This document shows, one piece after another, positions 8,722 to 64,000 of a DNA stretch of 64,000 nt. The position numbers and the translations under genes are program-made. Source of the stretch: Raja brachyura. Taxonomy: Eukaryota. The notes beneath the pieces were generated by a model. The model searched no databases and was not told where the DNA came from. It saw only the letters and a program-made list of their open reading frames with translations. Numbering within the stretch: position 1 is the stretch's first letter; every line of letters begins with the position of its first letter. The stretch covers positions 79,918,001-79,982,000 of the forward strand of contig OY740783.1 in the NCBI GenBank assembly GCA_963514005.1. The letters are read 5' to 3'.

Positions 8722-9030
8722 TTCGCCCTGCTTGAAATGGTATGAAACTGCATTTGAATGTGGTGGCGTTGCACCCTGCATGAAATGGTATGAAGCTGCA
8801 CTTGAATTTGGTGGCTTTGCACCCTGCTTGAAGTGGTATGAAATTGCACTTGAATTTGGTGGCCTTGCATCCTGCTTAAAGTGGTAGGAAACTGCACAAA
8901 TTCGTTGGCCTTGCACCCTGCTTGAAGTGGTAGGAAACTGCACTTGAATTTGGTAGCCTTGCACCCTGCTCGAAGTGGTAAGAAACTGCACTTGAATTTG
9001 GTGGCCTTGCACTCTGCCTGAAATGGAATT
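8722..9030 (+). repeat. 48-bp tandem repeat, about 6 copies, inside the Helitron
   Basis: Unit GCACCCTGCTTGAAGTGGTAGGAAACTGCACTTGAATTTGGTGGCCTT; accounts for the repetitive ORFs at 8680-9127. Confidence 0.92.
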
Positions 9031-9495
9031 TCAAGGTATAGCCGTGAGTCAACTGCCAGCCCACCAGCCGTGAGTGAGCTGCCAGCACATCATGCTTGAG
9101 GGACTGAGCTGCCACCCCAAGAACCAATTTGTTCCCACAATGTCCATACTAGCCCTCTGGAGACCAGTAGTCCCTGCAGCCAACAACACCCATACCAGCG
9201 CTCCAGAAAGCCCCCCTCCACCACTGGCCACCAATATTGGAATTGGTGGAGAGGTGGAATATTGCATCAGGGGACCAGCCCTCAAGTGTGAATATGGGAC
9301 CCAACGGGTCCCACTTAGTCTAGTTCAATTCTATTTGCAAATCCTCAGCAAATTAATTAGATACAGATAACAAGGTTTAAACCACATTTAAACATGTCTT
9401 AATATGTTTCAATGAGATGACAACAGTACCATTCCAACATGTTAGAATGCGCTGCAATCATTTATCCTTTCAAAGATTGGCTGCTTAAATTGAAA

Positions 9496-12490: not shown

Positions 12491-12876
12491 AATAACAACA
12501 CATCCTTTTGGTTGTCATATTTTAGATGAGCTGGTCAGTTCCTTGACGTGACCCGTGGCTTATCGTCCTCCTGGTGCCTCAGGACGACTTGATCGATGTC
12601 CCAATGGAGCTGCCGGCCCCACAAGTCCAACCAGGTACAGGCCCCAACCCATGGGCAGCGGGCAATTCCACTGCCTGATTTCAACGCCCCACGGACAATG
12701 AACCTAACCTCCCAACAGTGGATCCCGACAGCGAAGCCCAACCAAGCTGCAAACCTGACCTCCGGGACTGTCAGGCACTGACAATGACCAACCGACCGAT
12801 CAATGGGAGCCAGTCGGGCCAGAAACCCGACCGCCTTCTGGACTGAATAATGGCACCACCAGACCTTTGGAAGTAC

Positions 12877-14468
12877 TAAATGGGAGATGCCAGAGAGTAA
12901 TGGTGGATGGCTGTTTGTCGGGTTGGAAGCCGGTGACCAGTGGGGTGCCTCGGGGATCTGTGTTGGGTCCACTGTTGTTTGTCATGTACATCAATGATCT
13001 GGATGATGGGGTGGAAAATTAGATAAGTAAGTATGCAGATGATACTAAGATAGGTGGTGTTGTGGATAATGAAGTAGATTTTCAAAGTCTACAGAGAGAT
13101 TTGGGCCATTTGGAAGAATGGGCTGAAAGGTGGCAGATGGAGTTTAATGCTGATAAGTGTGAAGTGCTACATCTTGGCAGGACAAATCAAAATAGGATGT
13201 ACATGGTAAATGGTAGGGAATTGAGGAATGCTGTGGAACAGAGGGATCTAGGAATAACTGTGCATAGTTCCCTGAAGGTGGAATCGCATGTAGATAGGGT
13301 GGTAAAGAAAGTTTTTGGTGTGCTGGCCTTTATAAATCAGAGCATTGAATATAGGAGTAGGGAAGTAATGTTAAAATTGTACAAGGCATTGGTGAGACCA
13401 ATTCTGGAGTATGGTGTACAATGTCAAAGTCAAAAGAGTTTATTGTCATGTGTCCCTGACAGGACAATGAAAATCTTTCTTTGCATAGCACAACAGAACA
13501 TAGAAGGCATTGACTACAATTCTATACATAAATACACCCATGAATTAATAAATTAATAAAGTGCAAATAACAGATGGAGGGATATTAATGTTCAGAGTTC
13601 TGAGCCAGGTTTAATAGCCTGATGGCTGTGGGGAAGTAGATATTCCTAAACTGGGTTGTTGCATTCTTCAGGCTCCAGTACCTTCTACCCGAAGGTAGCA
13701 GGGAGATGAGTGTGTGGCCAGGGTGGTGTGGGTTCTTGATGATGCTGTCAGCCTTTTTGAGGCAGCGACTGTGATAAATCCCCTCGATGGAAGGAAGGTC
13801 AGAGCCGATGATGGACTGGGCAGTGTTTACTACTTTTTATAGTCTTTTCCCCTCCAGGGCGCTCAAGTTGCCGAACAAGTCAGCAAGCTCTCTACTGTGC
13901 ACCTGTAGAAGTTAGAGAGAGTCCTCCTTGACAGACCAACTCTCTGTAATCTTCTCAGGAAGTAGAGGCACTGATGAGCTTTCTTAATAATTGCATCTGT
14001 GTTCTCGGACCAGGAAAGATCTTCACAGAAGATCTAATTATAGGAAGGATGTCAACAAAATAGAGAGTACAGAGGAGATTTACTAGAATGTTGCCTGGGT
14101 TCCAGCAACTAAGTTACAGAGAAAGGTTGAACAAGTTAGGTCTTTATTCTTTGGAGCGCAGAAGGTTAAGGGGGGACTTGATTGAGGTCTTTAAAATGAT
14201 GAAAGGGATAGACAGAGTTGACGTGGATAAGCTTTTCCCATTGAGGGTAGGGAAGATTCAAACAAGAGGGCATGACATGAGAATTAAGGGACCGAAGTTT
14301 AAGGGTATCATGAGGGGGAACTTCTTTACTTGGAGTGGTGGTTGTGTGGAATGAGCTTCCAGCAGAAGTGGTGGAGACAGGATCGATTTTAACATTTAAA
14401 AGTAAAGTGGATAGGTATATGGGCGGGAAGGGAATGGCCTGTTTCCGTGCTGTAATTGTTTTATGGTT
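12877..14468 (+). mobile_element. Young CR1 subfamily, 5'-truncated, split by an insertion
   Basis: Nearly identical to 43127-44281; GVP.GSVLGP, YADDTKIGG, LYSLERRRLRGDLIEV. Confidence 0.95.
13423..14030 (-). mobile_element. Rex1/Babar-type LINE 3' fragment inserted in CR1
   Basis: Breaks CR1 between GGTGTACAAT and CTAATTATAGG; reverse strand reads LYFLRRL and LSNFYRCTVESLL; TGACAATAAA tail; same family as 61706-62025. Confidence 0.85.
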
Positions 14469-43055: not shown

Positions 43056-43126
43056 TAAGTTTCACAGAAGTTTTTGAGCTTATTGAAATCAGCAGAACCT
43101 GTTTCAAAAACTTTAAACAGCAGTAA

Positions 43127-44281
43127 GTCTTTGGGTGTTAATGGCGGAGTAGTAAGATGGATTCAACAGTGGCTGAATGGGAGATGCCAGAGAGTAATGG
43201 TGGATGGCTGTTTGTCAGGTTGGAAGCCGGTGACAAGTGGGGTGCCTCAGGAATCTGTGTTGGGTCCACTGTTGTTTGTCATGTACATCAATGATCTAGA
43301 TGATGGGGTGGAAAATTGGATAAGTAAGTATGCAGATGATACTAAGATAGGTGGTGTTGTGGATAATGAAGTAGATTTTCAAAGTCTACAGAGAGATTTG
43401 GGCCATTTGGAAGAGTGGGCTGAAAGATGGCAGATGGAGTTTAATGCTGATAAGTGTGAAGTGCTACATCTTGGCAGGACAAATCAAAATAGGACGTACA
43501 TGGTAAATGGTAGGGAATTGAGGAATGCTGTGGAACAGAGAGATCTAGGAATAACTGTGCATAGTTACCTGAAGGTGGAATCGCATGTAGATAGGGTGGT
43601 AAAGAAAGCTTTTGGTGTGCTGGCCTTTATAAATCAGAGCATTGAATATTGGAGTAGGGAAGTAATGTTAAAATTGTACAAGGCATTGGTGAGACCAATT
43701 CTAGAGTATGGTGTACAATTTTGTTCGCCTAATTATAGGAAGGATGTCAACAAAATAGAGAGAGTACAGAGGAGATTTACTAGAATGTTGCCTGGGTTCC
43801 AGCAACTAAGTTACAAAGAAAGGTTGAACAAGTTAGGTCTTTATTCTTTGGAGCGCAGAAGGTTAAGGGGGGACTTGATTGAGGTCTTTAAAATGATGAA
43901 AGGGATAGACACGTGGATAAGCTTGACGTGAGCTTGATCAGAGTTGACGTGGATAAGCTTTTCCCATTGAAGGTAGGGAAGATTCAAACAAGAGGGCATG
44001 ACATGAGAATGAAGGGACAGAAATTTAGGGGTAACATGAGGGGGAACTTCTTTACTCAGAGAGTGGTGGCTGTGTGGAATGATCTTCCAGCAGAAGTGGT
44101 GGAGGCAGGATCGATTTTAACATTTAAAAGTAAAGTGGATAGGTATATGGACGGGAAGGGAATGGAGGGGTATGGTCTGAGTGCAGGTAGATGGGACTAG
44201 GGGAAAATAAATGGTCGGCACGGACTGGAAGGGCCGAGAAGGCCTGTTTCCGTGCTGTAATTGTTATATGGTTATATGGTT
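43127..44281 (+). mobile_element. Young 5'-truncated CR1 LINE (RT C-terminal half almost open)
   Basis: ORF 43074-43931 has [23 protein letters not shown] and LVRPILEYGVQF; (TTATATGG)n tail. Confidence 0.96.
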
Positions 44282-45761: not shown

Positions 45762-46283
45762 AAGTAATTGGACCAGAATTAGACTATCCGGCCCATCAAG
45801 TCTACACCGCCATTCAAGCATGGCTGATCTATCTCTCCCTCCTAACCCCATTCACCTGCCTTCTCCCCATAACCTCTGGCACCCATACTAATCATGAATC
45901 TATCTATCTCTGCCTTAAAAATATCCATTGACGACCTCCACAGCCTTCTGTGGCAAAGAATTCCACAGATTCACCACCCTCTGACTAAAGAAGTTCCTTC
46001 TCATCTCTTTCCTAAAGAAACATCCTTTAATTCTGAGGCTATGACCTCTAGTCCTAGACTCTCCCACTTGTGGAAACATCCTCTCCACATCCACTCCATC
46101 CAAGCCTTTCACTATTCGGCACGTTTCAATGAGGTCCCCCCTCATTCTTCCGAACTCCAGTGAGTACAAGCCCAGTGCCATCAAATGCTCATCATAAGTT
46201 GACCCCCTCATTCCTGGGATCATTCTGGTAAACCTCCTCTGGACCCACTCCTTCCTCATCCTTCCTCAGATATGGTGCCCAAA
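45762..46283 (-). mobile_element. CR1 3' fragment
   Basis: VQRRFTRMIPG, LYSLEF.RMRGDLIE and FFSQRVVNLWNSLP. Confidence 0.92.
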
Positions 46284-46496
46284 GTTCATGGGGCCTTGAT
46301 AAAGATCTTTGCAACTTCTCCAGCCATAGGCGAGGTCCTGGTAGACTAGAGAGTGGTCAGTGCAGTTATTTTGTTTAAGATGAGAAGTAAAGAGAATTCT
46401 CAAATCATGGTGATAATAAAGTATCAATCAATTAATCAATCTATTGGAAATTTCCTGTAATCTATAGTATTTTATAGCCGGCTATAAAATTCTATA

Positions 46497-46917
46497 TTCT
46501 TTATTCTTTGGAGCGCAGAAGGTTAAGGGGGGACTTGATTGAGGTCTTTAAAATGATGAAAGGGATAGACAGAGTTGACATGGATAAGCTTTTCCCATTG
46601 AGGGTAGGGAAGATTCAAACAAGAGGGCATGACATGAGAATTAAGGGACAGAAGTTTAGGGGTAACATGAGGGGGAACTTCTTTACTCAGAGAGTGGTGG
46701 CTGTGTGGAATGATCTTCCTGCAAAAGTGGTGGAGGCAGGATCGATTTTAACATTTAAAAGTAAAGTGGATAGGTATATGGACGGGAAGGGAATGGAGGG
46801 GTATGGTCTGAGTGCAGGTAGATGGGACTAGGGGAAAATGAATGGTCGGTGCGGACTGGAAGGGCCGAAAAGGCCTGTTTCCGTGCTGTAATTGTTATAT
46901 GGTTATTATATGGTTAT
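46497..46917 (+). mobile_element. Young CR1 3' fragment with an apparent 11-bp TSD
   Basis: Nearly identical to 43840-44281; TTATAGCCGGC at 46472-46482 and 46914-46924. Confidence 0.92.
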
Positions 46918-46920
46918 AGC

Positions 46921-47568
46921 CGGCAGCCTCGCCAGCAGCGTGTTCGTTCTTTCGACATATTTCTGTTTTTTAGTATGTCTAAATTTATGTCTAAATGTAT
47001 GTTTTAGTGTGGGGGGTGGTGGGGGGAATAGTGGGAAACTGTTTTTCAGTCACTTATCTCGACGGAGATTGGACTTATCTCTTTGTTGCATCTCTGTTGC
47101 GGCCTAACAACTGGTTTGGTGCGGCCTTTCTCGGATCCCTGGCAAGGGATCGCCAGAAATAAATGCTCCGACCTCCGGCCTGCGCCCACAACGTCATGAA
47201 GCAGTGGTCTCCGATAAGAAAGGGGCCGATTCGGGAACTCCAAGCCACAGAGTGTATATTCCAATCCGTCGCAACGTCGGAGTTTCAATCATCCCGACGA
47301 GAGGGCTTGTACATCGGGCTGTCCATAACAGAGACTACGGAGGGTTCATGGCCCCGACCACGGTGAACAAAGGAAGAAGATGGCTGCACGTTATTGCATT
47401 CCATCACAGTGAAGAATGTTGATTCCACTGTGGTGGATGTTTATGGTAAATTATTTTGTGTATTGTGCTCTTTTTGATTGTATGGCTGCATTGTAACTCA
47501 TTTCACTGTATCTTAATTGGTGCATGTGACAAATAAATGTGAACTTGAACTTGAAATTGAACTTGAAC
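46921..47568 (+). mobile_element. Non-autonomous retroposon with a Rex1/Babar-type tail
   Basis: Homologous ends to 59779-60542; TTTCACTGTATCTTAATTGGTGCATGTGACAAATAAA plus (CTTGAA)n. Confidence 0.82.
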
Positions 47569-47702
47569 TATTTTGGTAGATAATAACCATTGCATTCACC
47601 ATTTGCAAGCTAGTTTTCTGGTTTGCAGATTTACCAGCTTTAAGTGGCATGGCTATCTCTCACTTTTTAACTGCCTTTTATCTATATATAATGTAATTTA
47701 AA

Positions 47703-49197
47703 TCTATATACTTTTAGAACTGTGCGTGTGCGTGTGCGTGTGCGTGTGTTATTTTTCATGTGAAATGTAGCTCCTCGACAACCAGATGCAAAAACGCAGA
47801 GCTTTTTACCATTTCGGTAGGGATTTAACCGATTTTCGGTAGGGAGTTCAGAAATCCACACGCTGGTCAATTATTTCCCCAGATTTTGATTACAATTTAT
47901 CACAAAACTCAATTTTTAAAATCTAAACGGCGCTCAGCAGCTGCTGACGTCACAATGCCCACATGCCGACCAATCCAGGCCCACCTGCGTCCGGGCCCCG
48001 GGCCCCGGGCCCGGCCCCCCGCCGCTGTGGATTAAAGGCACAGAGATATCGAGAAAGTTCTGCAGAACAAAGATTCCACAGCTGCATTCCGCTATAGCCT
48101 CTTTGTTCTATACATCTCAGGGGCAGCAACTCCTCATGCGCTGAATTTCTCCACATTAGTGCCGCTGAACTTTCTCCTCACAGCTGGCGCAGCTCGCAAA
48201 ATCCCGCCCGCCTGCGCACCCCTTCCATCCCCTGCGCGCCCATTCCAGCTGTGAGTTTCCAGAGAGTCAGAACGCGTCTTGCCTTAGCGGCTTTGAATGG
48301 CTGTTGTCAGCTGGCAGTTATCAACGGCTGCGGGCGTCGCGAGGCCAAGTTACGTCAACCCCCCCCCCCCCCCCCGATGTGCGCTGGCATTTGGCTCTCT
48401 GACTGTCTGACTCCTCCCTGTTCTGTGTTCCTCTCGGTGAACGAGCAAGTTTTGCAGATCTGGAGGACAGGCGAGATCCTGGGGAGGTGAAGAGGGGGAG
48501 AGGGGGAATTGAGGGAGAGGAGGGAGTAGGGAGGGAGAGGGGGGGAATGGGGGAGGTGGGGAGGAAGAGTGTGGGAATAGAGGGAGAGGAATGGGGGTGA
48601 TAGGGAGTGTGGAATAGATGGACTGCCCCCACCCCCCTCCCCCTCTCTCCACACTCTACCCCCCTCTCTTCCCTACCCCATCTCCCATCTCCCTCCTCCC
48701 CTCCACCCCTCCCCTGCCCCATTCCCTCCACCCTATCCCCTCCCTCCCCTCCCCCTCCCTTCCCCCCCACCTTTCCGCTCCCTTCCCTTCCCCCTCTCAG
48801 CCCCCTTCTCTCCCTCTCTCTCCCCCTCTCTCTCCTCCCCTCCCTCTCTCCTCCCATATCTCTCACCCCTCCTCACCCACCCTTCCCCTCCACCCCCTCT
48901 CCCTCTGTCTCTTGCCCTTCTGTCTCTGCCCCTTTCTCTTTGTCTCTCCCCATTCTCTCTCTGCTCTCACTCTCTACCCCCCCTCCCCCTCTAGATGCAC
49001 CTGCGAGTTGGGGGCTATGCGTCAGTGGATAGGGCGGTTATGGGGTAAAAGGAGCAAATTAATAATATTAATATAATATCAAGGGGGATAGTTAGCATGT
49101 GTGCGGGGGGTAGTTAGTGTGTGTGACGCCACATGGCGCCCCTCCCCAGCAACCACACATTGGGGGAACAGACCCAACGGGTCTGCACTTGGTCTAG
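47703..49197 (+). mobile_element. Non-autonomous Helitron
   Basis: 5' A|TCTATATAC (alternative start at 47681); 3' CAGACCC-AAC-GGGTCTG hairpin, then CACTTGGT-CTAG|T; internal (GTGTGC)n and purine/pyrimidine tracts. Confidence 0.8.
48480..48990. repeat. Adjacent purine-rich and pyrimidine-rich low-complexity tracts
   Basis: G/A-rich at 48480-48620, C/T-rich at 48625-48990. Confidence 0.9.
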
Positions 49198-49941
49198 TAC
49201 ATAACTAAAACTCTGATCTTGTTATCTTCCGGTTTGCATAAACGGTACACAATAGAGCTATGATTTTCCGCCACCTTACTCCCCATTCTCCTGTGCTGCA
49301 AGAGCACCAAGTTTTGTTCCAATCGATGGTATATTAAAAAATTATTAATGTTTAAATATCTTTAAAACCACACATGTGCAGATTGGACTCCTCTCCTGTC
49401 AGTCACCACCACGGAAGGACAGTGACGCACCTTCCTGCTCCATTGTCGCACTGATTGGCCGCATTCACTGTCAATCACTGGGGAAGGGGAGGGCCGTGAG
49501 GCCATGATCCCCGGCGTGCGGCAATCGACTGCGACGCTGAGGCTGGAGCGAGGTTTGGGGGAGCCGCAGTTCCACCCCCGCTTAGAGAGAGAGAGGAGCG
49601 GGCTTCAGCCTCTCAATCCCCCTCCCTGCTCTGCAACAGTATATTGGAGAGAGCAGCAGTCCTCCTGCTGTTTATTGCCATCATGTCTGTGCCTTCATTT
49701 CAATTCTGCAGCTGTGGGGATAATCTCAATGGTAAGGATCTCTCTGGGAAGGCTGGAGGAAGGTGGTTGAATCATTGACTCCTGCAGCCTGCCCTGCTTT
49801 TTCAAGCTTTCACAGTAACCTTTGCCTGCAGCACCGTTGATCCACACCAGAACCCACCTATGGGTGTGGTGGAAGGGAGGGAGCACACACGCAAAGGGAG
49901 CCTGGGGCACAGGGCCTGTAAACAGCCTGGTCTACTGGAGA

Positions 49942-50149
49942 NNNNNNNNNNNNNNNNNNNNNNNNNNNNNNNNNNNNNNNNNNNNNNNNNNNNNNNNNNN
50001 NNNNNNNNNNNNNNNNNNNNNNNNNNNNNNNNNNNNNNNNNNNNNNNNNNNNNNNNNNNNNNNNNNNNNNNNNNNNNNNNNNNNNNNNNNNNNNNNNNNN
50101 NNNNNNNNNNNNNNNNNNNNNNNNNNNNNNNNNNNNNNNNNNNNNNNNN
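49942..50149. other. Assembly gap
   Basis: Run of N. Confidence 1.
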
Positions 50150-50656
50150 CTCTGCAGTTGAGAAGGATTGGAGCAGCCTTTCCAGGATTTTGCCGTTGGA
50201 GAGGGCACAGACCCAGGGGGGCTTCATAGTTCAACTTATTGTTGGGCTGTTGAAGCTTTTCTCTGGTCTGGGGAGCCTCCATCTGTGTGAAGATTCCTGA
50301 GTTTCTCCACATTGTCGAGGGTGCGGTTGGCGTTGGCGGATTGCCAAGAGTGCCTGTGATCTCAGTGGGCTGAAGTTGTGCGGTGTCTTTGTCGTTTTTG
50401 GCTCCGCTTCTCTGCCCTAAAGTCATTTTGTCAGTGCGGCTGCCTGGCTTAATGTGAAGAAGGTACTTTTGCGTCCAGCGCGACTGGGATCGAGTTTCCC
50501 GTAAGCTGCTCTTGGCTGTGGACGAACCTGGGGACTTTCCTGCTTCAGCTGGAGGTTTCTGTTTTCTGCTGCCTGTCTTTGACTGTGACTGTCTCTGGGA
50601 CTTAACTTGGAGCTGTGCTGCTGAGGGGCTTGGAGCTGGTTTGTGCCTCTGTGAGG

Positions 50657-53011
50657 ATGGCGATGGAAGGGGCGCGGCCGAAGGTCCGGACCTACGCAGC
50701 GACGGCATCAGTGGCGGGTGCGAGGCCATCTGAGCTTGAGCCTCATGTTGACTTGGATGGGGACAGTTTTGGTATTTCTGTTCAAACTGGGCCTATGATG
50801 TCTAGGGGGGTAATTACGAAGGCCATGAATGAACTTCTTGGGAGGGGGGCTATTGTCTCTTCTGAGCTCGAAAGGGGAAAGGTGGAGATGATACTTAAGA
50901 CCCGGGAGTGTGTGGCCCGAGCGTTGGAGGAGGGGATCTCAGTGGGGGGGGTCCACGTACAGGTGGATCCGTGGGTATCCAGGGTGAGACCGGTTCTCCT
51001 GCGGAGCTGCCCCACTTATTTTTCGGATGCAGTGCTTATTCCACACCTGTCCAAGTTCGGGGAGGTGCGGTCTAAATGTTTTCGTCTCTTGCATCCCGGG
51101 GGGGACCCGGAGGAAAAAGGGGTCTTCAGTTTCAAGAGGAGGGTGTTCATGAAGGTGGGTGAGGGGGATGGTGCCGAGGGGAGTTTTGAGGTGGTGCATA
51201 AGGGTGTACCCAGAACCGTGCGTTGGAGTTGGGGAAAGGCACGGTGTCATGCGTGCGGCGAATTTGGACATCTCCGTAGGGAGTGTCTTTTTCGCGGGGG
51301 CACTGCTAGAGGTTCTAGTGCAGTGGCCCAGGAAAGCGCTGCTGGCCCATCTGGGGTGGCTGGTCAAACCTCAGCGGCGCGGGGTGGTACTGCTGACCCG
51401 GCTGAGGTTGCTAGTTCTGCCTTGGTGACCCGGGGCGGCAGTGCTAAGCCTTCTGGGTCCAGAGGTTCCGCTTTGGGGACCCTGGGCAGTGAGAGCCCAA
51501 GCCCCCCACGTCCCCTACGTCTTGCGCCTGTGGCGGTGGATGGAGGTGGGGCGCAGGAGGAGGGGAGTGTTGAGGGGGGGTTTTGGGAGAAGCAGGGGAA
51601 GCATAATAAGAAGAAGGAGAGGGATAGGGCTGCCCGAGCGAAGAAAGTGCAATCGGGTGAGTTTAGCTCCAGTGTGGTGCAGACTGCACCTGCTGGGGCC
51701 CAGGGGGGAGTTGTGGTGGCTCGGAAGGGGGGAAAGAAGTCTAAACGTGTGGGTGGCAAAGTGGTTGGGGGTAATGTGGAGGCGGATGACCCTTCCCTTA
51801 TGGAGGTTACCGCACCTCCGCATGCGAGTGGGACTAAAAGGAGGCATTTGCCTGGTGAAGAGGAGGAAGGGCGTGGGTCCAGAGCGAAGGGGATGTCTTT
51901 CTCCGGGCTTTCCACCACTGAGGTGGCTGAAAGTGGTCTTGACCCGGTGTCTTCTGGGTCGGTGGTTGGGCCTTCTCTTCATGGATCTACAGCGGGTGTC
52001 ACCGGACTGGGTGCTGAAGTTGATTCCGGTGGAGTTGTGTCCACTGGGCGGGAGTCTGTCCCTTCATCTCAGGGGCCCTCTGAGGGAGTTATCTCGGCGG
52101 ATGCTGTGGTTAGCTCCCTTGGGTGTGTACCCTCTGGGTCGGATGAGGTCCCCTCGTTTCAGAGGCCTACTGAGGGTGCTAGCACGGTAGGTGACGTGGT
52201 TGGCTCCTCTGGTAGTGTGCCCTCTGTGACGGGGGATGTGCAGAGTCAGGCTGAGGGGGGAGTTTCGGGGGTGTTGTCGTTCAAGTCTGTGCTCCATATC
52301 AGTGCCAGTGGAGGTGCTGGGGGGCGGGATGCCTCACCGGATGAGTTGTCTGGGGTGAGGTTAATGGCAGGTGGTGATTCTCTGGGTGATGCCTGTGGAG
52401 AGGGCACTCTGGATGATGTGGAGGTCAGGGCTGTTATGGGACGTGATCCTCTTTCAGACTCCGAGGGTGCCAGTGTTCCACAGGCCCTGGGGATGCCTCT
52501 TGTTGTTGCTTCCCCAGGCCCAGAGGAGGAGGGTGATGGTAGCGTGCAGGAGCCCAGCCATTCAGAGGGCTGCGAGTCTCAGGTAGGGGTGTTGGGACCC
52601 ACCCCCAGCATTGATCCGGGTGGTCGTGTCATGGCTGTGGAGGAGGATAGCGATGCGGCCAGTGGGGGGGGCTCAGAGTGTGATGTGTCAGACAGTTCTG
52701 GTCTTTCTGAGGTTGTTGATTCAGGTGCGAGCGGGTTGGCTGAGAGCCCAGACTCCAAGGCCGTGTCTGAGGCGAAGCTTATTGTTGAGGTGCGAGAGTT
52801 CTTAAAAATAAGTCGTGCTCCCAAAACATTATGGTGGGCCGTTACAAGGAGATGGGAGGATTGGCTAGATGTGCGGGAGAGTCTCGAGGCTATCCTTAGT
52901 AACAAGGATAGTGGTCTTTCTGACTCGGATTTGGGGCAGTTTTGGGGTTTGTTGAAGGTCCTCAGAAAAGGACCTCCTGTGACTACAGGGAGTGTGAGGG
53001 TCACAATCTAA
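50657..53011 (+). CDS. Tx1 ORF1 (gag-like nucleic-acid-binding protein with CCHC zinc knuckle)
   Basis: First ATG at 50657 (the track starts at GTG 50615); TYA motif, RRM-like LSKFGEV and FSFKRRVFM, CHACGEFGHLRREC at 51245-51286, basic patch, then a long acidic S/G-rich region. Confidence 0.88.
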   Translation: MAMEGARPKVRTYAATASVAGARPSELEPHVDLDGDSFGISVQTGPMMSRGVITKAMNELLGRGAIVSSELERGKVEMILKTRECVARALEEGISVGGVHVQVDPWVSRVRPVLLRSCPTYFSDAVLIPHLSKFGEVRSKCFRLLHPGGDPEEKGVFSFKRRVFMKVGEGDGAEGSFEVVHKGVPRTVRWSWGKARCHACGEFGHLRRECLFRGGTARGSSAVAQESAAGPSGVAGQTSAARGGTADPAEVASSALVTRGGSAKPSGSRGSALGTLGSESPSPPRPLRLAPVAVDGGGAQEEGSVEGGFWEKQGKHNKKKERDRAARAKKVQSGEFSSSVVQTAPAGAQGGVVVARKGGKKSKRVGGKVVGGNVEADDPSLMEVTAPPHASGTKRRHLPGEEEEGRGSRAKGMSFSGLSTTEVAESGLDPVSSGSVVGPSLHGSTAGVTGLGAEVDSGGVVSTGRESVPSSQGPSEGVISADAVVSSLGCVPSGSDEVPSFQRPTEGASTVGDVVGSSGSVPSVTGDVQSQAEGGVSGVLSFKSVLHISASGGAGGRDASPDELSGVRLMAGGDSLGDACGEGTLDDVEVRAVMGRDPLSDSEGASVPQALGMPLVVASPGPEEEGDGSVQEPSHSEGCESQVGVLGPTPSIDPGGRVMAVEEDSDAASGGGSECDVSDSSGLSEVVDSGASGLAESPDSKAVSEAKLIVEVREFLKISRAPKTLWWAVTRRWEDWLDVRESLEAILSNKDSGLSDSDLGQFWGLLKVLRKGPPVTTGSVRVTI

Positions 53012-56000
53012 TGTGTCTACACATTCACAGTAGCTACATTAAATTTAAATGGGAGTAGAGCGAGTTTTCGAAGATTTCAGCTCTTATCAGCCCTAAGGGA
53101 GGGGAGATTTGCAGTTTGTTATCTGCAAGAGACACATACCGTTGCTAGTGATGAACCTACCTGGCAACTGGAGTGGGAAGGGAGGGTTTATATGAGCCAT
53201 CTCAGCTCAAATTCGAGTGGGGTGGCTTTTCTGTTGGCCCCAAATTTTCTGCCAAGCATTTTAAAAGTGCAGGAAGTGGTGCCAGGACGTTTGCTCCATC
53301 TGGCCGTGAGCCTGGATGGCATGCCGTTGCATTTCATTAACGTGTATGCCCCTAGCTCCGGCACGATGCAGGCCGGCCTGCTTCGGGAGGTGAATGCTCT
53401 GTTGGGCACTATTGATAGGGGAGAGTGTGTCTTCCTTGGTGGGGACTTTAATTGCACACTTGAGGTGCGGGACCGTTCTGGTACTCAGTGTGCGCCTGCT
53501 GTAGCGAAGAAGCTGAGAGGCTTGATTGACTCCTTTGAGTTGGTTGATGTTTGGAGGGACCTTCACCCTGATTCCACTGCTTTTTCGCGGAGGTCTGAGG
53601 GCGGTGGTTCCCGCATTGATCGGTTTTATATTTCCCGAGCGTTTGTTTCCCGTGTCTCAGCGGCCTCAATGCGGCTGGTGCCGTGCTCGGACCATTGTCT
53701 GGTGCGTGTGGATTTCAATCCAGCGTGCGCTCGGGCTGGGTCCGCGTACTGGCACTTTAACAACAGGCTGCTGGAGGACCGGTGTTTCCGGGAGTCATTC
53801 ACTCGGTTTTGGGTGAAGTGGAGAGAGAGGCAGAGGTGCTTCTCTTCCCTTAGGCAGTGGTGGGATGTGGGTAAAGCTCACATCCGTCTCTTTTGTAAGG
53901 AATATACATGGGGGTCGACTGGGAGGCGGGACTCAGCGGTCGAGAAGCTGGAGAGGGAGATACAGGACGCTGAGTCTCGCCTGGGTCAGTTTGGTGAAGA
54001 CTCCAGCGAATGGGGAGAGTTTCAGAGGAAGAAGGAGGTTTTGAGGAGTCTGCTGCTTGAGCGATCTCGAGGCGCTTATGTGAGGTCTCGGGTCCAGATG
54101 CTGCACGAGCTGGACCGAGCGTCGCCTTTCTTTTTCTCTTTGGAGAAGGGGCGGGGAGCTCGAAAACAGCTCGTGGAGTTGCTTGCAGATGACGGCTCCT
54201 CTGTCACTGATCCAGAGAGGATTAATGCCTTGGTTAGGTCCTTTTATGGGACCCTGTTCTCTGCGGAAGGATTCAGTGTGGAGGCTCAGCAAGATCTGTG
54301 GGAGGGTCTACCGACCGTAGATAGGGGGGAGGCTGATCTTCTTGATGGCCCCTTATCTTTGGAGGAGTTGACTCGCGCCTTGCATCAGCTCAGGAGGGGT
54401 AAGTCCCCCGGGCTGGATGGGTTGACGGTGGAGTTTGTTAGAGCATTCTGGGACGTCCTAGGGGGTGACTATATGTTGGTTTTGGGGGAGAGCCTGGCGA
54501 CTGGAGTGATGCCTCTCTCGTGGCGTAGGACGGTTGTTGTCTTGCTGCCTAAGAAGGGCGAACTCCGTTTGTTGAAGAACTGGCGTCCAGTCTCTCTCCT
54601 TTGCACAGAATATAAAATTTTTGCACGGGCAATGGCAAATCGCCTGGGCTCCGTGCTGCATCAAGTGATTCATCCTGATCAATCTTATACAGTCCCTGGC
54701 CGGTCCATCCAGGATAACATCCACCTGGTTAGGGACCTGATTCATTTAGTCCAGGGTACTGGTGAGTCAGCTGCTTTTCTGTCTCTTGATCAGGAGAAGG
54801 CTTTTGATAGGGTAGAGCATGAATACCTATTTGGGACGTTGCAAGCGTTTGGGTTCGGACCACACTTCGTGGCCCGGGTCCGGCTTTTGTACGCTGCTGC
54901 GGAGTGTCTTGTAAAGGTTAATGGCGCGGTGCTATCTCCTTTTCATTTTGGGAGGGGGGTCCGCCAGGGGTGCCCTATGTCGGGCCAGTTGTATTCGGTC
55001 TGTGTGGAGCCGTTCCTGTGTCTTCTTCGGAGGAGGTTGACAGGCCTGGCCCTACCTGGCCCGCGGGTTGAGGTGATTCTATCGGCGTATGCCGATGACG
55101 TACTTCTTATGTTCACTGATCCTGGTGACCTGCGGAGGATGCGTGACTGCCAGGAGATATTCTCGGCTGCATCTTCTGCTAGGATTAACTGGAGTAAGTG
55201 CTCTGGACTTTTGGTGGGTCAGTGGCGGGTAGACTCCCTGCCGGAGGAGATGGCATTGTATGCGTGGAGTACCACGCACCTCCTCTATCTGGGGGTGTAC
55301 CTGAGTCCCACTGAGGATGTTTGGCCGGCAAACTGGCAAGAGTTGGAGACGAAGGTGGTTGCTCGGCTGGGGCGCTGGTCAGGCCTGCTTGGAGTTCTCT
55401 CCTTTCGGGGGAGGGTGCTGGTCATAAACCAGCTGGTGGCCTCTATGTTATGGTACCGGCTGGCTACTCTTGTCCCGCCCTCTATATTTGTAACTGCTAT
55501 ACAGAAGAAGCTGGTGGATTTCTTTTGGGGAAATAGGAAGCATTGGATTTCCGCGGCGGTCCTGAGTCTTCCGTTAGAGGAGGGCGGCCAGTCCTTGGTG
55601 TGCGTGCGCACCCAGGTGGCGGCTCTCCGTCTCAGGACTCTGCGGAGATACATGTATGTAGAGAACCCTCCCAGATGGCACGCTCTGGCCACGTATTTTT
55701 TTCGTCAGGGTCGTTGCCTAAGGGGGGTCTCGCGGCTCCCGGTGGCGGGTGTCAGTCGACCCGCTCTAAGGGGCTTGCCTGTTTTCTATAGGGATGTGTT
55801 AAGAGTGGGGAATTTGGTGGTGTTCAGCCAGAGTGTTGTTCCACGAGGAGAGGGGGATGTTGTGGCTGCGGGTGTGGCTGGTCCTCATCCTGTCATGGTG
55901 GTTGTCGAGGAGAGGCGCGAGCCTAGAGTGGTTCAGATAGAGCTTACCCCTGCTCCGTCAGATCTGCTCATCGGGCCTAGGCTTCGGGATATTTCTCGGC

Positions 56001-56719
56001 CTCCGGCTCCGCATAATCTGAGCTGCCTTTCTGAGATGACCAGCATGCCATTTTGTGATGCAAGGAGACGCGCACTGTACAGGATGCTCCTGCACATTCT
56101 GAACCACCGTGCCTTCGTCTCCCGTCCTGACTCACCATGGAGGACGGTGTTACCATCCGAAGGCGGCGGGGGGCCCCAGTGGGGGTCCTTCTATAAGGGA
56201 GTTGTACCCCTTTATATTGGGGACCTGGGGTGGAGAGTGCTGCATGGAGCGGTGGTTTGTAATAAACTTTTGAGTCGGTTCACGGGCTCGTCTGCCGCAT
56301 GTATTTTCTGCGGAGAGGAGGAGACCGTATTCCATGTGTATGTGGAGTGTGTGAGGTTACTGCCCCTGTACCAATATCTGAAGGGGTTGTTCCTCAAGTT
56401 CTGGCTGCATTTTAGCCCCACAATCCTGGTGTTTGGACACAAGGCGGGGAGTGGGGAGAGCCGAGTGTGGGGGGGGGACTTACCTGTCGGTTTGCTCCTT
56501 GGCCTGGCCAAGATGGCCATTCGTGGGTCCAGGCAGCGGGCGGTCGACGGTCTGGCGAGAGTCGGCTGCCTGCCCCTCTTTCGGGCCTACGTCCGTGCAC
56601 GTGTGTCCCTGGAGAGGGAACACGCGGTGTTCACGGGGACTCTGGAGGCCTTCCGTCAGCGCTGGTCGCCGCGTGGGGTTGAGGCGATTATAAATGAATG
56701 TACTGCTGTACTACAATGA
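53012..56719 (+). CDS. Tx1 ORF2: APE endonuclease, reverse transcriptase and C-terminal zinc finger
   Basis: Frame is open from 53012: TVATLNLNG, LQETH, NVYAP, GGDFNC, RIDRFY, SDH; KSPGLDG, NWRPVSLL, LDQEKAFDRV, GVRQGCPMS, YADD; CIFCGEEETVFHVYVEC. The first in-frame ATG is only at 53192. Confidence 0.96.
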   Translation, partial: CVYTFTVATLNLNGSRASFRRFQLLSALREGRFAVCYLQETHTVASDEPTWQLEWEGRVYMSHLSSNSSGVAFLLAPNFLPSILKVQEVVPGRLLHLAVSLDGMPLHFINVYAPSSGTMQAGLLREVNALLGTIDRGECVFLGGDFNCTLEVRDRSGTQCAPAVAKKLRGLIDSFELVDVWRDLHPDSTAFSRRSEGGGSRIDRFYISRAFVSRVSAASMRLVPCSDHCLVRVDFNPACARAGSAYWHFNNRLLEDRCFRESFTRFWVKWRERQRCFSSLRQWWDVGKAHIRLFCKEYTWGSTGRRDSAVEKLEREIQDAESRLGQFGEDSSEWGEFQRKKEVLRSLLLERSRGAYVRSRVQMLHELDRASPFFFSLEKGRGARKQLVELLADDGSSVTDPERINALVRSFYGTLFSAEGFSVEAQQDLWEGLPTVDRGEADLLDGPLSLEELTRALHQLRRGKSPGLDGLTVEFVRAFWDVLGGDYMLVLGESLATGVMPLSWRRTVVVLLPKKGELRLLKNWRPVSLLCTEYKIFARAMANRLGSVLHQVIHPDQSYTVPGRSIQDNIHLVRDLIHLVQGTGESAAFLSLDQEKAFDRVEHEYLFGTLQAFGFGPHFVARVRLLYAAAECLVKVNGAVLSPFHFGRGVRQGCPMSGQLYSVCVEPFLCLLRRRLTGLALPGPRVEVILSAYADDVLLMFTDPGDLRRMRDCQEIFSAASSARINWSKCSGLLVGQWRVDSLPEEMALYAWSTTHLLYLGVYLSPTEDVWPANWQELETKVVARLGRWSGLLGVLSFRGRVLVINQLVASMLWYRLATLVPPSIFVTAIQKKLVDFFWGNRKHWISAAVLSLPLEEGGQSLVCVRTQVAALRLRTLRRYMYVENPPRWHALATYFFRQGRCLRGVSRLPVAGVSRPALRGLPVFYRDVLRVGNLVVFSQSVVPRGEGDVVAAGVAGPHPVMVVVEERREPRVVQIELTPAPSDLLIGPRLRDISRPPAPHNLSCLSEMTSMPFCDARRRALYRMLLHILNHRAFVSRPDSPWRTVLPSEGGGGPQWGSFYKGVVPLYIGDLGWRVLHGAVVCNKLLSRFTGSSAACIFCGEEETVFHVYVECVRLLPLYQYLKGLFLKFWLHFSPTILVFGHKAGSGESRVWGGDLPVGLLLGLAKMAIRGSRQRAVDGLARVGCLPLFRAYVRARVSLEREHAVFTGTLEAFRQRWSPRGVEAIINECTAVLQ

Positions 56720-56778
56720 TCTGTTCATTATAGTGTGATTTTTGATTGTGTTTTGATGTGTTGTATTTTATGATTTGT

Positions 56779-56939
56779 NNNNNNNNNNNNNNNNNNNNNN
56801 NNNNNNNNNNNNNNNNNNNNNNNNNNNNNNNNNNNNNNNNNNNNNNNNNNNNNNNNNNNNNNNNNNNNNNNNNNNNNNNNNNNNNNNNNNNNNNNNNNNN
56901 NNNNNNNNNNNNNNNNNNNNNNNNNNNNNNNNNNNNNNN
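56779..56939. other. Assembly gap
   Basis: Run of N. Confidence 1.
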
Positions 56940-57294
56940 CATTGAAAGACAGAGAGAGAGAGGCAGAGAGAGACAGAGAAAGAGAGAGTGAAGAGTAGGG
57001 GGAGGGAGTGCTGGGGGATGAGGGAGATTGGAAAAGGATAGGGGGTAGGAAGAGGGAGAGTGAGATGCGTTCACATTGATCTTATATTTTACGTTATTGC
57101 CGTTTTAAACTTTAAAAACATCAGCCGCGCCTGCGCAGGTGGGGGCTATGGGTGAGTGGTGGAATATTGCGTTGGGGGAACGGGTTACGTTGGGGGAACG
57201 GGTGAGTGGTGGAATATTGCATTGGGGAATGGATTGCGTGGGGGGACCAGGCCTCCCGTGTGACAGGGACCCAACGGGTCCCACTTAGTCTAGT

Positions 57295-57862
57295 TTGATC
57301 TCTTGAAAGTTATTTGTCTCCTCTCCCATGAAGGCAGAACCAAAGTACTAGCTTAATTGCGTCACCATTTCTTTGTTCCCCATTATAAATTCTCCCCTTG
57401 CTTTATGCAAGGGCCCCACATTTGTCTTTGCTTTTGACTCTCTTTTTACATTCTTGTGCAAGCTTGTACGCTCCACTCTTACCCTCCTTTTGTTTGCCTG
57501 GCAAAGTGAAGAATTTAATATTCTCACACATTATATTGCAGCAGCTATATTCTTGCTCACTCAATCAGCTTGCTCATATGCCCCTGAAGCCTCTCGGCAT
57601 CCCCATCTATTTTTGTATCATCAGCAAACTCAGGCCTTTTGAGTTTCTCAGGCTCCTGTACCTTTACCCAACGAGAAAATTACATTTGATAATCTCAGTC
57701 AAATCACTGATAGAGGTTGAGTATAATTGGGTCATGGCACCAGTTACTGAGGTAACCCATTCATCACATCCTGCCAACCTGAGAAAGATCCATTGATTCT
57801 CACTATCTACTTTCTGTCAAATAACCAAATCTCAAGCCATGTTGGCATATTATCACAACCCT
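57295..57862 (-). mobile_element. Old CR1 fragment
   Basis: CACCATTTCTTTGTTCCCCATTATAA and GGCCCCACATTTGTCTTTGC are the reverse of the NVGP..IMGNKEM region. Confidence 0.7.
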
Positions 57863-57871
57863 ATGTGCCCT

Positions 57872-58388
57872 GAATGTCGGGGGACGGAGAGGAAGGGCCC
57901 TCACCCCCCCCTCCAACCCTTTTCTCCTCCCCCTCTCCATCTCCCCCTCCACACCCTCTCCACCCTCTCCCCACTCCCTCCACACCCCCCCCCCTTTCTC
58001 CCCCCTCCTCTCACCCCCTTTCCCCCCCCCTCTCTCTCTCTTTCTCTGCCTCATGGAGGGGGTAGAGAGGGAGGGGGTAGAGGTAGCAGCTACCGAAGCC
58101 GTAGAACATAAGCCTCCCCATCAGGAGTCGGGCCCAAGGTAGGCTGCGGGCGTCGTTGACCAGAACGAGGCCCGCAGCACTCTGAGGACTGTGAAAAACA
58201 GCGGAGGGCCAGCAGCGCACTCACTAGCTTAATGGACGATCGGGCAGGGGAGATGGAGAGGAGGTCGTCTAATCTCTACCGGACTATGTAATAATTTCTC
58301 TGTTACAGCGTCGGGTTTTGGAGGAGATGTGACTGACAACCAAACAAACAAACAAAAACCAATGAAGAGAGTTTTAATAGTTATATGA
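57872..58388 (-). mobile_element. Non-autonomous Helitron 5' portion
   Basis: Minus strand starts A|TCATATAACTATTAAAACTCTC, then (TTTG)n and CTCCTCCAAAACCCGACGC similar to 47770-47790; no 3' hairpin seen. Confidence 0.62.
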
Positions 58389-59778
58389 TATGTTATGATG
58401 TGATACGATATGATGATATGATGATATCAGTACTGGGATGGGCTTGACTTGAACTTGGGCCAATGTGTTGATGAGTCCATATTGGCAGATGATCAGGTAA
58501 ACCGAGCCTGAAGAGATGGTCAGAGATATGACCGAAGATGTGAGCAATGATTATTGTGGTGAGAAGTTGGTGAGTTGATCAAGAATGCTCAATGAAACAA
58601 ATAGAGAATACCGATGGGGGTTGGGGAGAGAGCTAAAACTTAATAAGGGACAGAGGGGGGTGGACCATAGAATCAATTGCTAAGCATGAACAGCTAAAGA
58701 TAAATGCCTCAGGTTCCCCTGCTGCAGCCCATTTGGTTTGGACCTTTCAATGAGGCCAGACCAGGTCAGACCAGGCTTCATCTGGTTAAGTTTTGTTTTA
58801 ACATCATTTGCTTGTATTGAAGGGATTGTGGAACTTTGGGAAAATTGCGCCAACTATGATTTGCAAGGCCATTTTACACTGTTACTTTGTGGGCACAATG
58901 TAATGACTGGGAAGTAAGCCAAGAAGGTGATCAAGTGGTTGGTGAAAGAGCCTGTAGCTCATAAGGACATTACAGGGAGGTAAAGTGACACCAACTGCCT
59001 TACTGGTGCTCAATATATATTCACTGTACATTGTAACTGACCTCCAACTGTATGAATAGAGGAGCTGAATTGAACATCTGGAAAAGTGCTGCTTCATGCT
59101 TTGTTCAGTTTGTTCTGGGCTGATAGCTCATTTATTACATTTCAATGGTTAGTTTGTTGACTCTGCTCAAATTAAAGAGGATTTTGTATCTCAGTTAGTT
59201 TGAAACTTCTCAAAGGGATCAAAGCAAAATTAAACTAGTGATGAAATTTAATTATTTTAGTCCAGCACAGTAATAAGAAATTCAATGGGAAAGAAAAACC
59301 TGTGCATTAAAAAAATAATTTGAATTGATTTATGATTACTGTAATGAATATAAATTATGATATTCATTCACTGATTGAAGATAATCTTGATTCTACTAAT
59401 GTCTTAAGAAAGCAATTATCAGAATAGCTTTATGGATTACCTTCATGGATTATGGATTATGCATTATGTAGAACATTTTATCAACATACAGTTACATATA
59501 TATGGAAAGATTTTTTTAAAGGAATCAGGACTAAATTGTGCAGGAAGTTTAAAGTTGATCCATGAAAGAGTTTTAAAAAATTGGGAAAAATATAAATAAA
59601 CTGAAAAGCACTAGACTGAAAATTCCTTGAGTGGCAATTCCAGTTCTTTACCTGGAATGTTACCCTTCACTGCTCTTCACTACTGACACTTCTGGAGTTT
59701 GTAGGATCAGCAGGTAGACTCCAGTTCGGTGCCTGATACTGGTCAATCTATTAATATAGATCACTGGTGTATATCTAG

Positions 59779-60542
59779 TTCCGGTGGCGCTGAGAGTCGG
59801 CTGCCTCACCTGCAGCGGGTTCGTTGTTTCGACTTTTTTTGTTTTTGTTAGTATGTCCTAAAGTATGTTTTGGTGTTTCTCTGTATATCTTGTGTGTGGG
59901 GTGGTGAGGGGGGGGGGGGGGGGATAGGGGGGAACCGTTTTCAGGCACCTGCCTTGACGGAGAGGTGACTTTCTTCCTTGTCGCTTCACCGCCCCCCTCC
60001 TCGCGGCCTTACAGCTGGATTGGTGCGGTCTTTCTGGGAGTGGGGCCCAGGGCTTCAGCGACGGCGCAGCGGGTACTTTAACATTGTGGGCCCAGAGCCT
60101 CAGCGGCGGCGCAGTGGGGACTTTAAACATCGCGGAGCCCCTTGCCGTGGGTTGCTGGAGAAGCGCTCTGAGCACTGGCCTGCGGCCTACAACATCTGGA
60201 AGCTGCGGTCTCCGGTGAGGAGGTGGCCGCTTTTGGAGCTCCGGGCCGCGCAATGTGCACGACCTCTCCCGACATCGGCGTTCCGACCATCCCGGCCATC
60301 CCAACATCGGGCAGTCTGTAGTGGCGACTATGGAGGGTCAGGGCCCCGACCACGGGTGAACAAGGGAGGAGGACTGTCTGAACTGTATTGCCTTCCATCA
60401 CGGAGAAGAATGCTGTGGTGGATTGTCGGTGTTGAATAATGTTGTATATTACGTCCTTTTTTAATTGTAACGCTGCATGGTAAATTAATTTCACTGCACC
60501 TTATGGTGTATGTGACAAATAAATTTAAACTTGAACTTGAAA
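59779..60542 (+). mobile_element. Non-autonomous retroposon with a Rex1/Babar-type tail, apparently full length
   Basis: TTCCGGTGGCGC start, CpG-rich middle, TATTGCCTTCCATCAC block, TTTCACTGCACC..GTGACAAATAAA plus CTTGAA tail. Confidence 0.82.
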
Positions 60543-62725: not shown

Positions 62726-64000
62726 TAGAAACATAGAAACATAGAAAATAGGTGCAGGAGAAGGTCATTCGAGCCAGCACCGCCATTCATTGTGATCATG
62801 GCTGATCGTCCCCAATCAATAACCCATTCTCCCCATATCCCTTGATTCCACTAGCCCCTAGAGATCTATCTAACTCTCTCTTAAATCCATCCAGGGACTT
62901 GGCCTCCACTGCCCTCTGTGGCAGGGAATTCCACAAATTCGCAACTCTCCGGGCGAAAACGTTTTTTCTCACCTCAGTCTTAAATGCCTTCCCTTTTATT
63001 CTAAGACTGTGGCCCCTGGTTCTGGACTCACCCAACATTGGGAACATTTTTCCTGCATCTAGCTTGTCCAGTCCTTTTATAATTTTATATGTTTCTATAA
63101 GATTTCCCCCTCATCCTTCTAAACACCAGTGAATACAAGCCTAGTCGTTTCAATCATTCCTCATATGACAGTCCCGTCATCCCAGGGATCAATCTCATGA
63201 ACCTATGCTGCACTACCTCAATCACGAAGATGTCCTTCCTCAAATTCGGAGACCAAAACTGGACACAATACTCCAGATGTGGTCTCACCAGAGCCCTATA
63301 CAACTGCAGAAGAACCTCTTTACTCCTATACTGAAATCCCCTTGTTATGAAGGCCAACATTCCATTAGCTTTCTTCAATGCCTGCTGTACCTGCACGCCA
63401 ACTTTCAGTGACTGGTGTACAAGGACGCCCAGGTCTCGCTGTACCTCCCCCTTGCCTAACCTAACCCCATTGAGGTAATAATCTGCCCCCTTGTTTTTGC
63501 CGCCAAAGTGGATAACCTCACATTTATCTATATTATACTGCATCTGCCACGCATCTGCCCACTCACTCAACCTGTCCAGGTCACCCTGCAACCTCCTAAC
63601 ATCCTCTTCACAGTTCACACTGCCACCCAGATTTGTGTCATCTGCAAAGTTGCTGGTGTTGCTCCTAATTCCCTCTTCCAAATCATTAATATATATGGTA
63701 AACAGTTGCGGCCCCAACGCCGAGACTTGCGGCACTCCACTCGCCACTGCCTGCCATTCTGAAAAGGACACGTTCACTCCTACTCTTTGCTTCCTGTCTG
63801 CCAACCAATTTTCTATCCATGTCAACACCCTACCCCCAATACCATGTGCTCTAATTTTAGTCACCAGTCTCCCATGCGGGACCTTATCAAAGGCTTTCTG
63901 AAAGTCTAGATACACTATATCCACTGGCACCCCTTCATCCATTTTCCTTGTCACATCCTCAAAAAATTCCAGAAGATTAGTCAAGCATGATTTCCCTTTC
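62726..64000 (-). mobile_element. CR1 LINE (same subfamily as 1-2460), running off the window
   Basis: ORF 63154-63984 has LDFQKAFDKVPH, SGVPQ, FADDT and LVRPHLEYCVQFW; (ACATAGAA)n tail. Confidence 0.96.

Follow-up and report, generated by a model that had tools for sequence, protein, structure and literature searches.

Several long interspersed elements (LINEs) of the Tx1 clade insert into other repeats. The accessible passages of the survey by Kojima (2015, PMC4494074) place Tx1L in Tx1D, Tx1-Mar in Mariner-N4_AMi, Tx1-9_AMi in Harbinger, Tx1-8_Crp and Tx1-4_AMi in long terminal repeat elements, and Kibi, Koshi, and the crocodilian (TTCC)n/(TTTC)n families in TC-type microsatellites; the targets of Kibi and Koshi are given as (TC)n and (TTC)n, respectively, in the accessible part of a second paper (PMC3812793). 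In these passages of both papers, the strand of the (TC)n repeat relative to the element is not stated. The survey answers the question of hitch-hiking by Tx1 families that target transposable elements (TEs) with 5′-truncated copies, and it describes tandem stacking of target-specific elements, including the related SINEU. Helitrons are not mentioned in the accessible text of the survey, the figure and supplements of which may list more targets, and no Helitron-targeting or shark Tx1 element was found in the literature searched, with most subscription journals and Repbase Reports lying outside it. Here, we analyzed a Tx1-clade LINE that is flanked by Helitron-like sequence in the skate Raja brachyura; the window, to which all coordinates refer, comprises 64,000 nt (contig OY740783.1, positions 79,918,001 to 79,982,000, forward strand).

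The initial annotation of this window had regarded the LINE as apparently nested in a non-autonomous Helitron and had proposed that its family targets Helitrons or the GA/TC tracts carried by them. The precedents it named, i.e., a target-specific Tx1 clade with Tx1L in Tx1D and Kibi and Koshi in microsatellites, are on record in the passages of Kojima (2015, PMC4494074); families targeting TEs and microsatellites are already described there, and the general picture of Tx1 elements targeting repeats is unchanged by the locus. Our best explanation, to which we give about an even chance, is that a Tx1L-lineage family preferring (GA)n landed in a GA tract carried by a Helitron. The composition of the locus is as follows:

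47702–49197, + strand: Helitron-like element A with an approximate 5′ boundary (TC at either 47702 or 47681), GA and TC tracts in its interior, and a 3′ hairpin followed by CTAG; its 3′ end aligns to 9297–9323.
49198–49390, + strand: 5′ core of element B, non-autonomous and Helitron-like, covered by contigs and aligning to 8432–8527; the right limit 49390 is an estimate from binned depth.
49391–49941: left flank without a homologue in the window, with an empty (AG)6 at 49584–49595 and GGAGA at the gap edge.
49942–50149: assembly gap of 208 N, expected to contain the 5′ junction and approximately 19 nt of the Tx1 5′ end.
50150–50656, + strand: assembled part of the Tx1 5′ untranslated region (UTR), covered from 50150 by contigs of runs X1, X17, and X19.
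50657–53011, + strand: open reading frame 1 (ORF1), 784 amino acids, with a conserved N-terminal part containing a CX2CX4HX4C knuckle and then a long low-complexity part.
53009–53030, + strand: ORF1/ORF2 junction, where TAA is followed by ORF2 in frame; spanned without a gap by contigs of X1, X16, and X19.
53012–56719, + strand: ORF2, 1235 codons from stop to stop, with an APE endonuclease (8–228), a reverse transcriptase (RT, 513–762, YADD), and a C-terminal zinc knuckle.
56720–56778, + strand: assembled part of the T-rich 3′ UTR, extended by at least 22 nt by one X17 contig (depth 47.2).
56779–56939: assembly gap of 161 N containing the 3′ junction.
56940–57065, + strand: GA-rich tract with (AG)6 at 56951–56962 (tract measured as 56943–57065).
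57066–57293, + strand: Helitron-like 3′ part with a 50-bp tandem repeat, an intact hairpin at 57266–57282, and a CTAG end.

GA repeats near the ends of the Tx1 element

The LINE lies on a contig of 6629 bp that carries ORF1 and ORF2 on the + strand between the two N gaps (49942–50149 and 56779–56939), and its immediate surroundings were inspected in short-read contigs from four of the 20 matching runs (X1, X16, X17, and X19) at 88% likeness, with 56940–56994 left out as repeat. All statements on these contigs rest on 26 of 420 pieces, 19 of 180 loose ends, 40 of 248 substitutions, and 12 of 14 indels. One X1 contig was identical to 50150–51234 (1085 bp) and ran 43 letters further in the 5′ direction. 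The 30 letters of this overhang that could be inspected consisted of (AG)n followed by 19 letters shared with the start of an X17 contig. Accordingly placed, the Tx1 5′ end extends 19 letters into the left gap (all 19 common to X17 and X1, 17 of them present in X19, and nine in X16), and 24 letters of the X1 overhang lie past the shared 5′ end; the 11 of them inspected are pure AG repeat. In the window itself, the left contig terminates in GGAGA, and on the right an (AG)6 lies eleven bases past the gap. A 12-nt GA repeat starts at only two of the 57,002 non-Tx1 positions on the + strand, both of them in the Tx1 flanks (49584 and 56951). The 5′ flank was visible in one of the four runs, where it was (AG)n, and the 3′ flank in none of the contigs considered. 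The proposal of the initial annotation fared differently in its two halves: GA/TC targeting has gained one (AG)n junction and a right flank that starts with GA, and Helitron-specific targeting rests on one locus.

Two teleost relatives with 41% identity (L001 and L002) served as controls. Both have (TC)n on the sense strand, in L001 on either side of the element and in L002 on the 5′ side; they are unnamed, and their flanks suggest that they are of the Kibi type. The skate element shares with Kibi and Koshi the class of the duplex microsatellite, and like L001 it has a 3′ end with AATAAA and without poly(A) in the letters seen. In contrast, its sense strand reads GA where L001 and L002 read TC, corresponding to the opposite polarity. 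A further difference is that its RT falls into the Tx1L clade, outside the teleost relatives residing in microsatellites; no match carried the name Kibi or Koshi.

In target-primed reverse transcription, the nick is made in the strand complementary to the sense strand, and the RT elongates the resulting end with the element RNA as template. The skate element would move in this way; its endonuclease would favor (GA)n tracts, the nicked strand would be (TC)n, and insertion would leave the sense strand reading GA on both sides. The hairpin loop of the endonuclease has seven residues (RRSEGGG; ORF2 codons ~192–200, 53585–53610), a length common to four other relatives with 65–70% identity (P0059, P0085, P0086, and P0087), whereas that of Tx1L has 11. 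The seven-residue loop aligned without gaps to the R1Bm-loop chimera 2v0s and has the length of the R1Bm loop. This hairpin loop influences target choice in L1, as stated in the accessible part of PMC1950540. A shorter loop together with reversed polarity, if true, would offer a natural comparison for site choice by APE endonucleases; Tx1 endonucleases switch targets often.

Several observations weigh against a preference for (GA)n. The 5′ flank was seen in just one of the four runs and in one contig, which may derive from this very locus. The 5′ contigs of X17, X19, and X16 reach 19, 17, and nine letters out, respectively, and the 3′ contig of X17 reaches 22 letters, none of them entering a repeat. 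These stops count against a strict, pure (GA)n target because such contigs should run into the repeat; the argument is weak in that they are contig ends and that 19 of the 180 loose-end rows were considered. Insertions of Tx1-clade elements have a target-site duplication (TSD) at their junctions; here, neither a TSD nor the 3′ junction is visible, both junctions lying within the N gaps. In addition, the (AG)6 located 350 bp leftward (49584–49595) is unoccupied, and assembly gaps arise at low-complexity tracts anyway.

A recent insertion that fell into a Helitron cluster by chance, with the GA context being a coincidence or the product of repeat growth after insertion, is unlikely in our estimate. 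It would be in keeping with a window that was chosen for its nested look and of which approximately 6% is Helitron-like, and the short glycine-rich endonuclease loop, present in four relatives at 65–70% identity, might relax specificity. Opposed to this are the rarity by composition of same-strand GA on both sides (two of 57,002 positions), the target preference in many Tx1 families, and a likely three-copy contig of 18,092 nt, which is described below.

The right contig begins with eight bases (56940–56947) that resemble both the finish of the X17 3′ loose end and the pre-repeat end of L001. Judged by this resemblance, these bases might represent the terminus of a Tx1 copy instead of Helitron sequence.

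Helitron-like flanks and scaffolding of the locus

Helitrons start with TC after A and end with a GC-rich hairpin and CTRR followed by T, the insertion site being A^T. The right flank ends in a hairpin with a 7-bp stem (57266–57282), seven bases, CTAG (57290–57293), and then T. By itself the hairpin is weak (z −1.63, 12 of 200 shuffles); the same hairpin-CTAG-T end recurs at 9323, 49197, and 57293, so that all three ends in the window fit the rule. The GA-rich tract and Helitron 3′ end that the initial annotation had noted on the right are thus borne out. At 57294, contigs exit the window into unlike flanks (five in X17, agreement 0.54; three in X16, 0.62), and the loose ends at this position (eight contigs considered) and at 49198–49201 are those of a dispersed repeat with sharp ends. 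Three contigs from other copies connect the 3′ portion of this tract with the Helitron 3′ end (57023/57024 to 57129/57203), and on this ground we assign the GA tract to the Helitron. A GA-rich loose end was also found before 57123. Targeting of the hairpin loop can be dismissed for this locus, given its intact 3′ hairpin.

On the left, the annotation of 49198–49941 as Helitron-like stood for its first part only. The segment 49198 to ~49390 aligned to 8432–8527 with a score of 36 (null maximum 28, 0 of 100 shuffles), whereas 49391–49941 had no homologue in the window (best expectation value, E, 0.27). The gap-free element at ~8400–9323 carries both the 5′ core and the 3′ end (3′ match score 81, 0 of 100 shuffles), and a low-depth X16 contig (depth 2.19) links 49236 with 57123, its shorter arm comprising 36 letters. 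Judged by this element and this joint, the two termini, which the initial annotation had considered might stem from different families, are of one broad family. Helitron-like elements share ends and differ internally, so the shared ends are not proof of one element. The gap-free element, which spans 8235–9323 on wider bounds, also contains 47- and 48-bp minisatellites.

Position 49198 directly adjoins the hairpin-CTAG of element A (about 47702–49197), and because of this abutment the element B copy is without its own 5′-TC. There is no TC at 49198 in the window, and in a three-contig X19 consensus ATCTA stands ahead of 49198 (agreement 0.61). At 49190–49210, the Helitron-like elements abut head to tail, with CTAG, then TA, and no TC. 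The loose ends behind 49199 (five contigs, X19) and 57294 (X16, X17) resemble further Helitron 5′ ends. From these arrangements, stacking at the AT-rich 5′ tip of Helitrons may be common. For the co-mobilization of the LINE as rolling-circle cargo, which the initial annotation had envisaged, we found no positive evidence, and the element B copy has no 5′-TC of its own.

A further Helitron-like 5′ part with a GA tract lies at ~57870–58385 on the − strand; a matching 3′ hairpin was not found for it. Taken together, Helitron-like sequence makes up ~6% of the window (3483 of 57,002 positions, rough bounds), and such elements contain four of the six long purine/pyrimidine tracts (80 nt or more) of the window. 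No exact match to the Helitron 3′ motif was found in the metagenome, genome, and viral contigs searched, and no Rfam match within 46000–60000.

These data bear on two readings other than the preference for GA repeats. It is unlikely that the endonuclease recognizes a fixed position in Helitron B, located where the GA tract begins or close to it, in the manner of Tx1L and Tx1D, with the composite perhaps moving as rolling-circle cargo. The nearest full-length named relative, Tx1L, targets a DNA transposon; the two Helitron ends, which come from one broad family, occur in the correct order and on the correct strand, in a window of which only ~6% is Helitron-like; and contigs stopping at the element ends would fit a degenerate GA-rich target. 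This is set against a single scaffolded locus, a sole observed 5′ flank that is plain (AG)n and not a recognizable Helitron, the stretch 49391–49941 without shown Helitron homology, and an element B copy without its own 5′-TC. Moreover, the endonuclease loop has seven residues versus 11 in Tx1L, and therefore the target habit of Tx1L is not simply transferable. On balance, a preference for the GA repeat is more likely than recognition of the Helitron.

If the element prefers (GA)n, abundant non-autonomous Helitrons would carry the GA tracts, and the locus would represent one LINE landing in such a tract; the Helitron would be the carrier of the target and not the recognized feature. The LINE would then often be found in Helitrons because abundant Helitrons supply GA-rich tracts. 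If true, this would serve as a warning that an apparently TE-targeting LINE can arise from a microsatellite carried by the host TE.

Nesting of the Tx1 element in a Helitron at this locus is plausible; it is unproven, as is a TSD, because both junctions fall in unclosed N gaps. The initial annotation had pointed this out, and we confirmed both gaps and found neither of them bridged by the 26 of 420 pieces from the four runs. The segments 49574–50147 and 57323–57600 are without cover in these runs, and the Tx1 body has a depth of ~8–96 where covered. Taken at face value, this would speak against joint amplification of the LINE and its left flank; owing to the record filter, however, the hole is not evidence.

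It is unlikely, though somewhat more probable than a fixed Helitron site or chance, that 50150–56778 merges several young copies, or a tandem stack, into one collapsed consensus scaffolded between repeat-ended contigs, and that the Helitron parts are perhaps two separate truncated elements. The contig ends inside the element on both sides, missing 19 nt on the left and at least 22 nt on the right. The eight X16 contigs considered, which have high depth, differ from the window by only four substitutions and one gap in 4951 bp. Helitron-like elements are dense and abut one another (47702–49197 and 57870–58385), and the loose ends behind 49199 and 57294 look like Helitron 5′ ends. Conversely, the gap sizes of 208 and 161 are not round, which suggests measured links, and both flanks end in GA, like the X1 junction. 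The window also differs from every covering run at 51412 (four of four), 53779 (three of three), and 55808 (three of three); read from the alignments, these sites may have changed in one real copy only, or they may distinguish species.

Lineage, coding capacity, and age of the element

ORF1 and ORF2 are the only two of the 47 stop-to-stop ORFs of at least 120 amino acids in the window that exceed 320 amino acids. In line with the Tx1 clade, an APE-type endonuclease is located at the ORF2 N-terminus, a CCHC knuckle in ORF1, and a zinc knuckle at the ORF2 C-terminus. ORF2 matched the Pfam families PF03372 (E 8e-15) and PF00078 (E 2e-36); a match to PF13966 at ORF2 1057–1113 scored 21.1 bits, under the Pfam cut-off of 27.5, and the zinc-knuckle motif aligned with that of Tx1L. 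Comparison of the endonuclease with solved L1 endonuclease structures gave an E value of 6e-25, with the N, QE, Y, GDFN, D, and SDH motifs retained. Residues 39–231 of ORF1 matched ORF1 of the teleost relative L001 (31%, E 6e-17); ORF1 had no Pfam family and no match among the 8000 candidates searched. At the 3′ end, one X17 contig reaches at least 22 nt into the right gap; the letters seen include an AATAAA signal and lack poly(A). The element would be a young and probably still active LINE of ~6.7 kb. The description as the only element with undamaged ORFs needs two qualifications: both ORFs are open, but ORF2 has no in-frame ATG before Met61, and the near-identity to the X16 contigs means that the sequence is maybe a collapsed family consensus and not one copy.

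The best full-length named match of ORF2 was the Tx1L ORF2 of Xenopus laevis (P14381; 46% over 99%, 1224 bits), followed at a distance by the best teleost pol-like protein (864 bits). The nearest named proteins were from stingray, skate, and horn shark (64–70% over parts), in keeping with a cartilaginous fish as the probable host. In an RT tree of 21 rows, hand-picked from 68, the skate element and the stingray sequence were sister to sturgeon, Xenopus, and turtle sequences (100/100), with the teleosts apart, and a Tx1L clade with P14381 comprised seven rows at 100/100. A quick RT tree of all 68 rows agreed with this, giving a nine-row clade with P14381 (Shimodaira–Hasegawa-like approximate likelihood ratio test 100). 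With the top full-length named match and the RT clade both pointing to it, Xenopus Tx1L is tied to the element more strongly than could be known for the initial annotation. The branching of the RT sequences appears to follow host relationships, which would fit vertical descent.

Tx1L (P14381) and the skate element are alike in having two ORFs, an APE endonuclease, an RT, and a zinc knuckle, in sharing an RT clade, and in adjoining a non-autonomous DNA transposon. They differ in that the host of Tx1L is the piggyBac Tx1D, whereas the neighbor of the skate element is Helitron-like, its flank is a GA repeat, and a fixed site is unproven; the endonuclease loops differ in length (11 versus seven), and Tx1L ORF2 has an initiator Met that skate ORF2 lacks. 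With the crocodilian TE-targeting Tx1 elements, which were compared by description only, the skate element would share the position of a Tx1 LINE within an abundant non-autonomous element and, probably, the tandem stacking known from the related SINEU. Their targets, in contrast, have been shown on many copies, and no Helitron occurs among them in the accessible passages.

A scan of metagenome contigs with ORF2 gave four loci from 36 candidates, all teleost-like (40–41%); none of 19 candidates in genome contigs and none in viral contigs was retained. Three public gene models contain ORF2 pieces of the Tx1L lineage, P0086 (skate ZNF830), P0045 (stingray VWA7-like), and P0059 (horn shark, uncharacterized). 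These pieces are probably annotation errors over intronic copies.

The Tx1 contig was found, whole or in part, in 20 runs of 13 studies under seven organism codes, ten runs containing at least half of its words; the seven organism codes carry 83–93% of the 31-letter words of the element. Such near-constancy across several labels may reflect slow evolution in close kin or transfer. Because the X16 contigs are nearly identical to the window, the sequence represents a very recent copy or a collapsed consensus; on these sequence comparisons, the Tx1 family is young. Three distinct ORF2 products (P0084, P0094, and P0095) that are 97–99% identical to the ORF2 of the skate element are each recorded on an ENA contig of 18,092 nt, and if these records are one contig, they probably represent a tandem stack of three copies, an arrangement known from target-specific elements.

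In one X1 contig, a 231-bp stretch in the C-terminal region of ORF1 (52648–52878) carried 21 differences, compared with seven in the remaining 2988 bp. The segment may be a recombined or fast-evolving patch.

ORF1/ORF2 junction and other features of the window

ORF2 directly follows the TAA of ORF1 and reads in the ORF1 frame. No in-frame ATG occurs before codon 61, within the endonuclease and past its catalytic Asn and Glu; near-cognate codons ahead of Met61 are limited to codons 29, 38, 53, and 58. An ATG overlapping the ORF1 stop (TAATG) opens an ORF of 16 codons in a different frame. Three database products begin at the same Met61, and the relative P0087 (65% identity) has an ordinary Met start.

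A lesion at the ORF2 start was considered and rejected. The junction was identical in every base in X1 and X16 contigs, with all 28 X1 differences located outside it and X16 showing no difference over 52879–53221; an X19 contig crossed it without an indel (two of its six differences were inspected).

In principle, ORF2 may be reached by read-through, re-initiation, frameshift, or splicing. The RNA fold downstream of the ORF1 stop was not unusual (z −1.50, 14 of 200 shuffles), and because this fold is ordinary, it provides no support for a read-through stimulator. The motif CTAAT...CAG at 53008–53030 resembles a branch point and acceptor, and in-phase donor candidates exist, the best at 51656 by rough matrix scoring. 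Human L1 is known for AUG-independent translation of ORF2, and an AUG-less, in-frame ORF2 in the skate element is relevant to the debated translation mechanism of ORF2 in LINEs. In SART1 of Bombyx, ORF1 and ORF2 are coupled by a UAAUG stop-start in which the AUG opens ORF2, according to the accessible part of PMC3894237. The skate element likewise has TAATG overlapping the ORF1 stop; in contrast to SART1, this AUG is out of the ORF2 frame, and ORF2 shares the frame of ORF1. That all parts hold jointly, i.e., that the element homes on a Helitron GA tract with a polarity opposite to Kibi, stacks in tandem, and makes an AUG-less endonuclease-RT by UAA read-through (as a gag-pol-like fusion) or by AUG-free re-initiation, is unlikely in our view.

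Elsewhere in the window, a SINE (short interspersed element)-like repeat of ~90–190 bp occurs at least six times on the + strand and several times on the − strand (positions 5901, 9845, 18266, 19114, 23038, 41045, and others). Broken LINE pieces of other families were located at 1290–2425, 12876–13175, 43059–43931, and 62763–64000, of which 43059–43931 includes an RT fragment (PF00078, E 1e-13).

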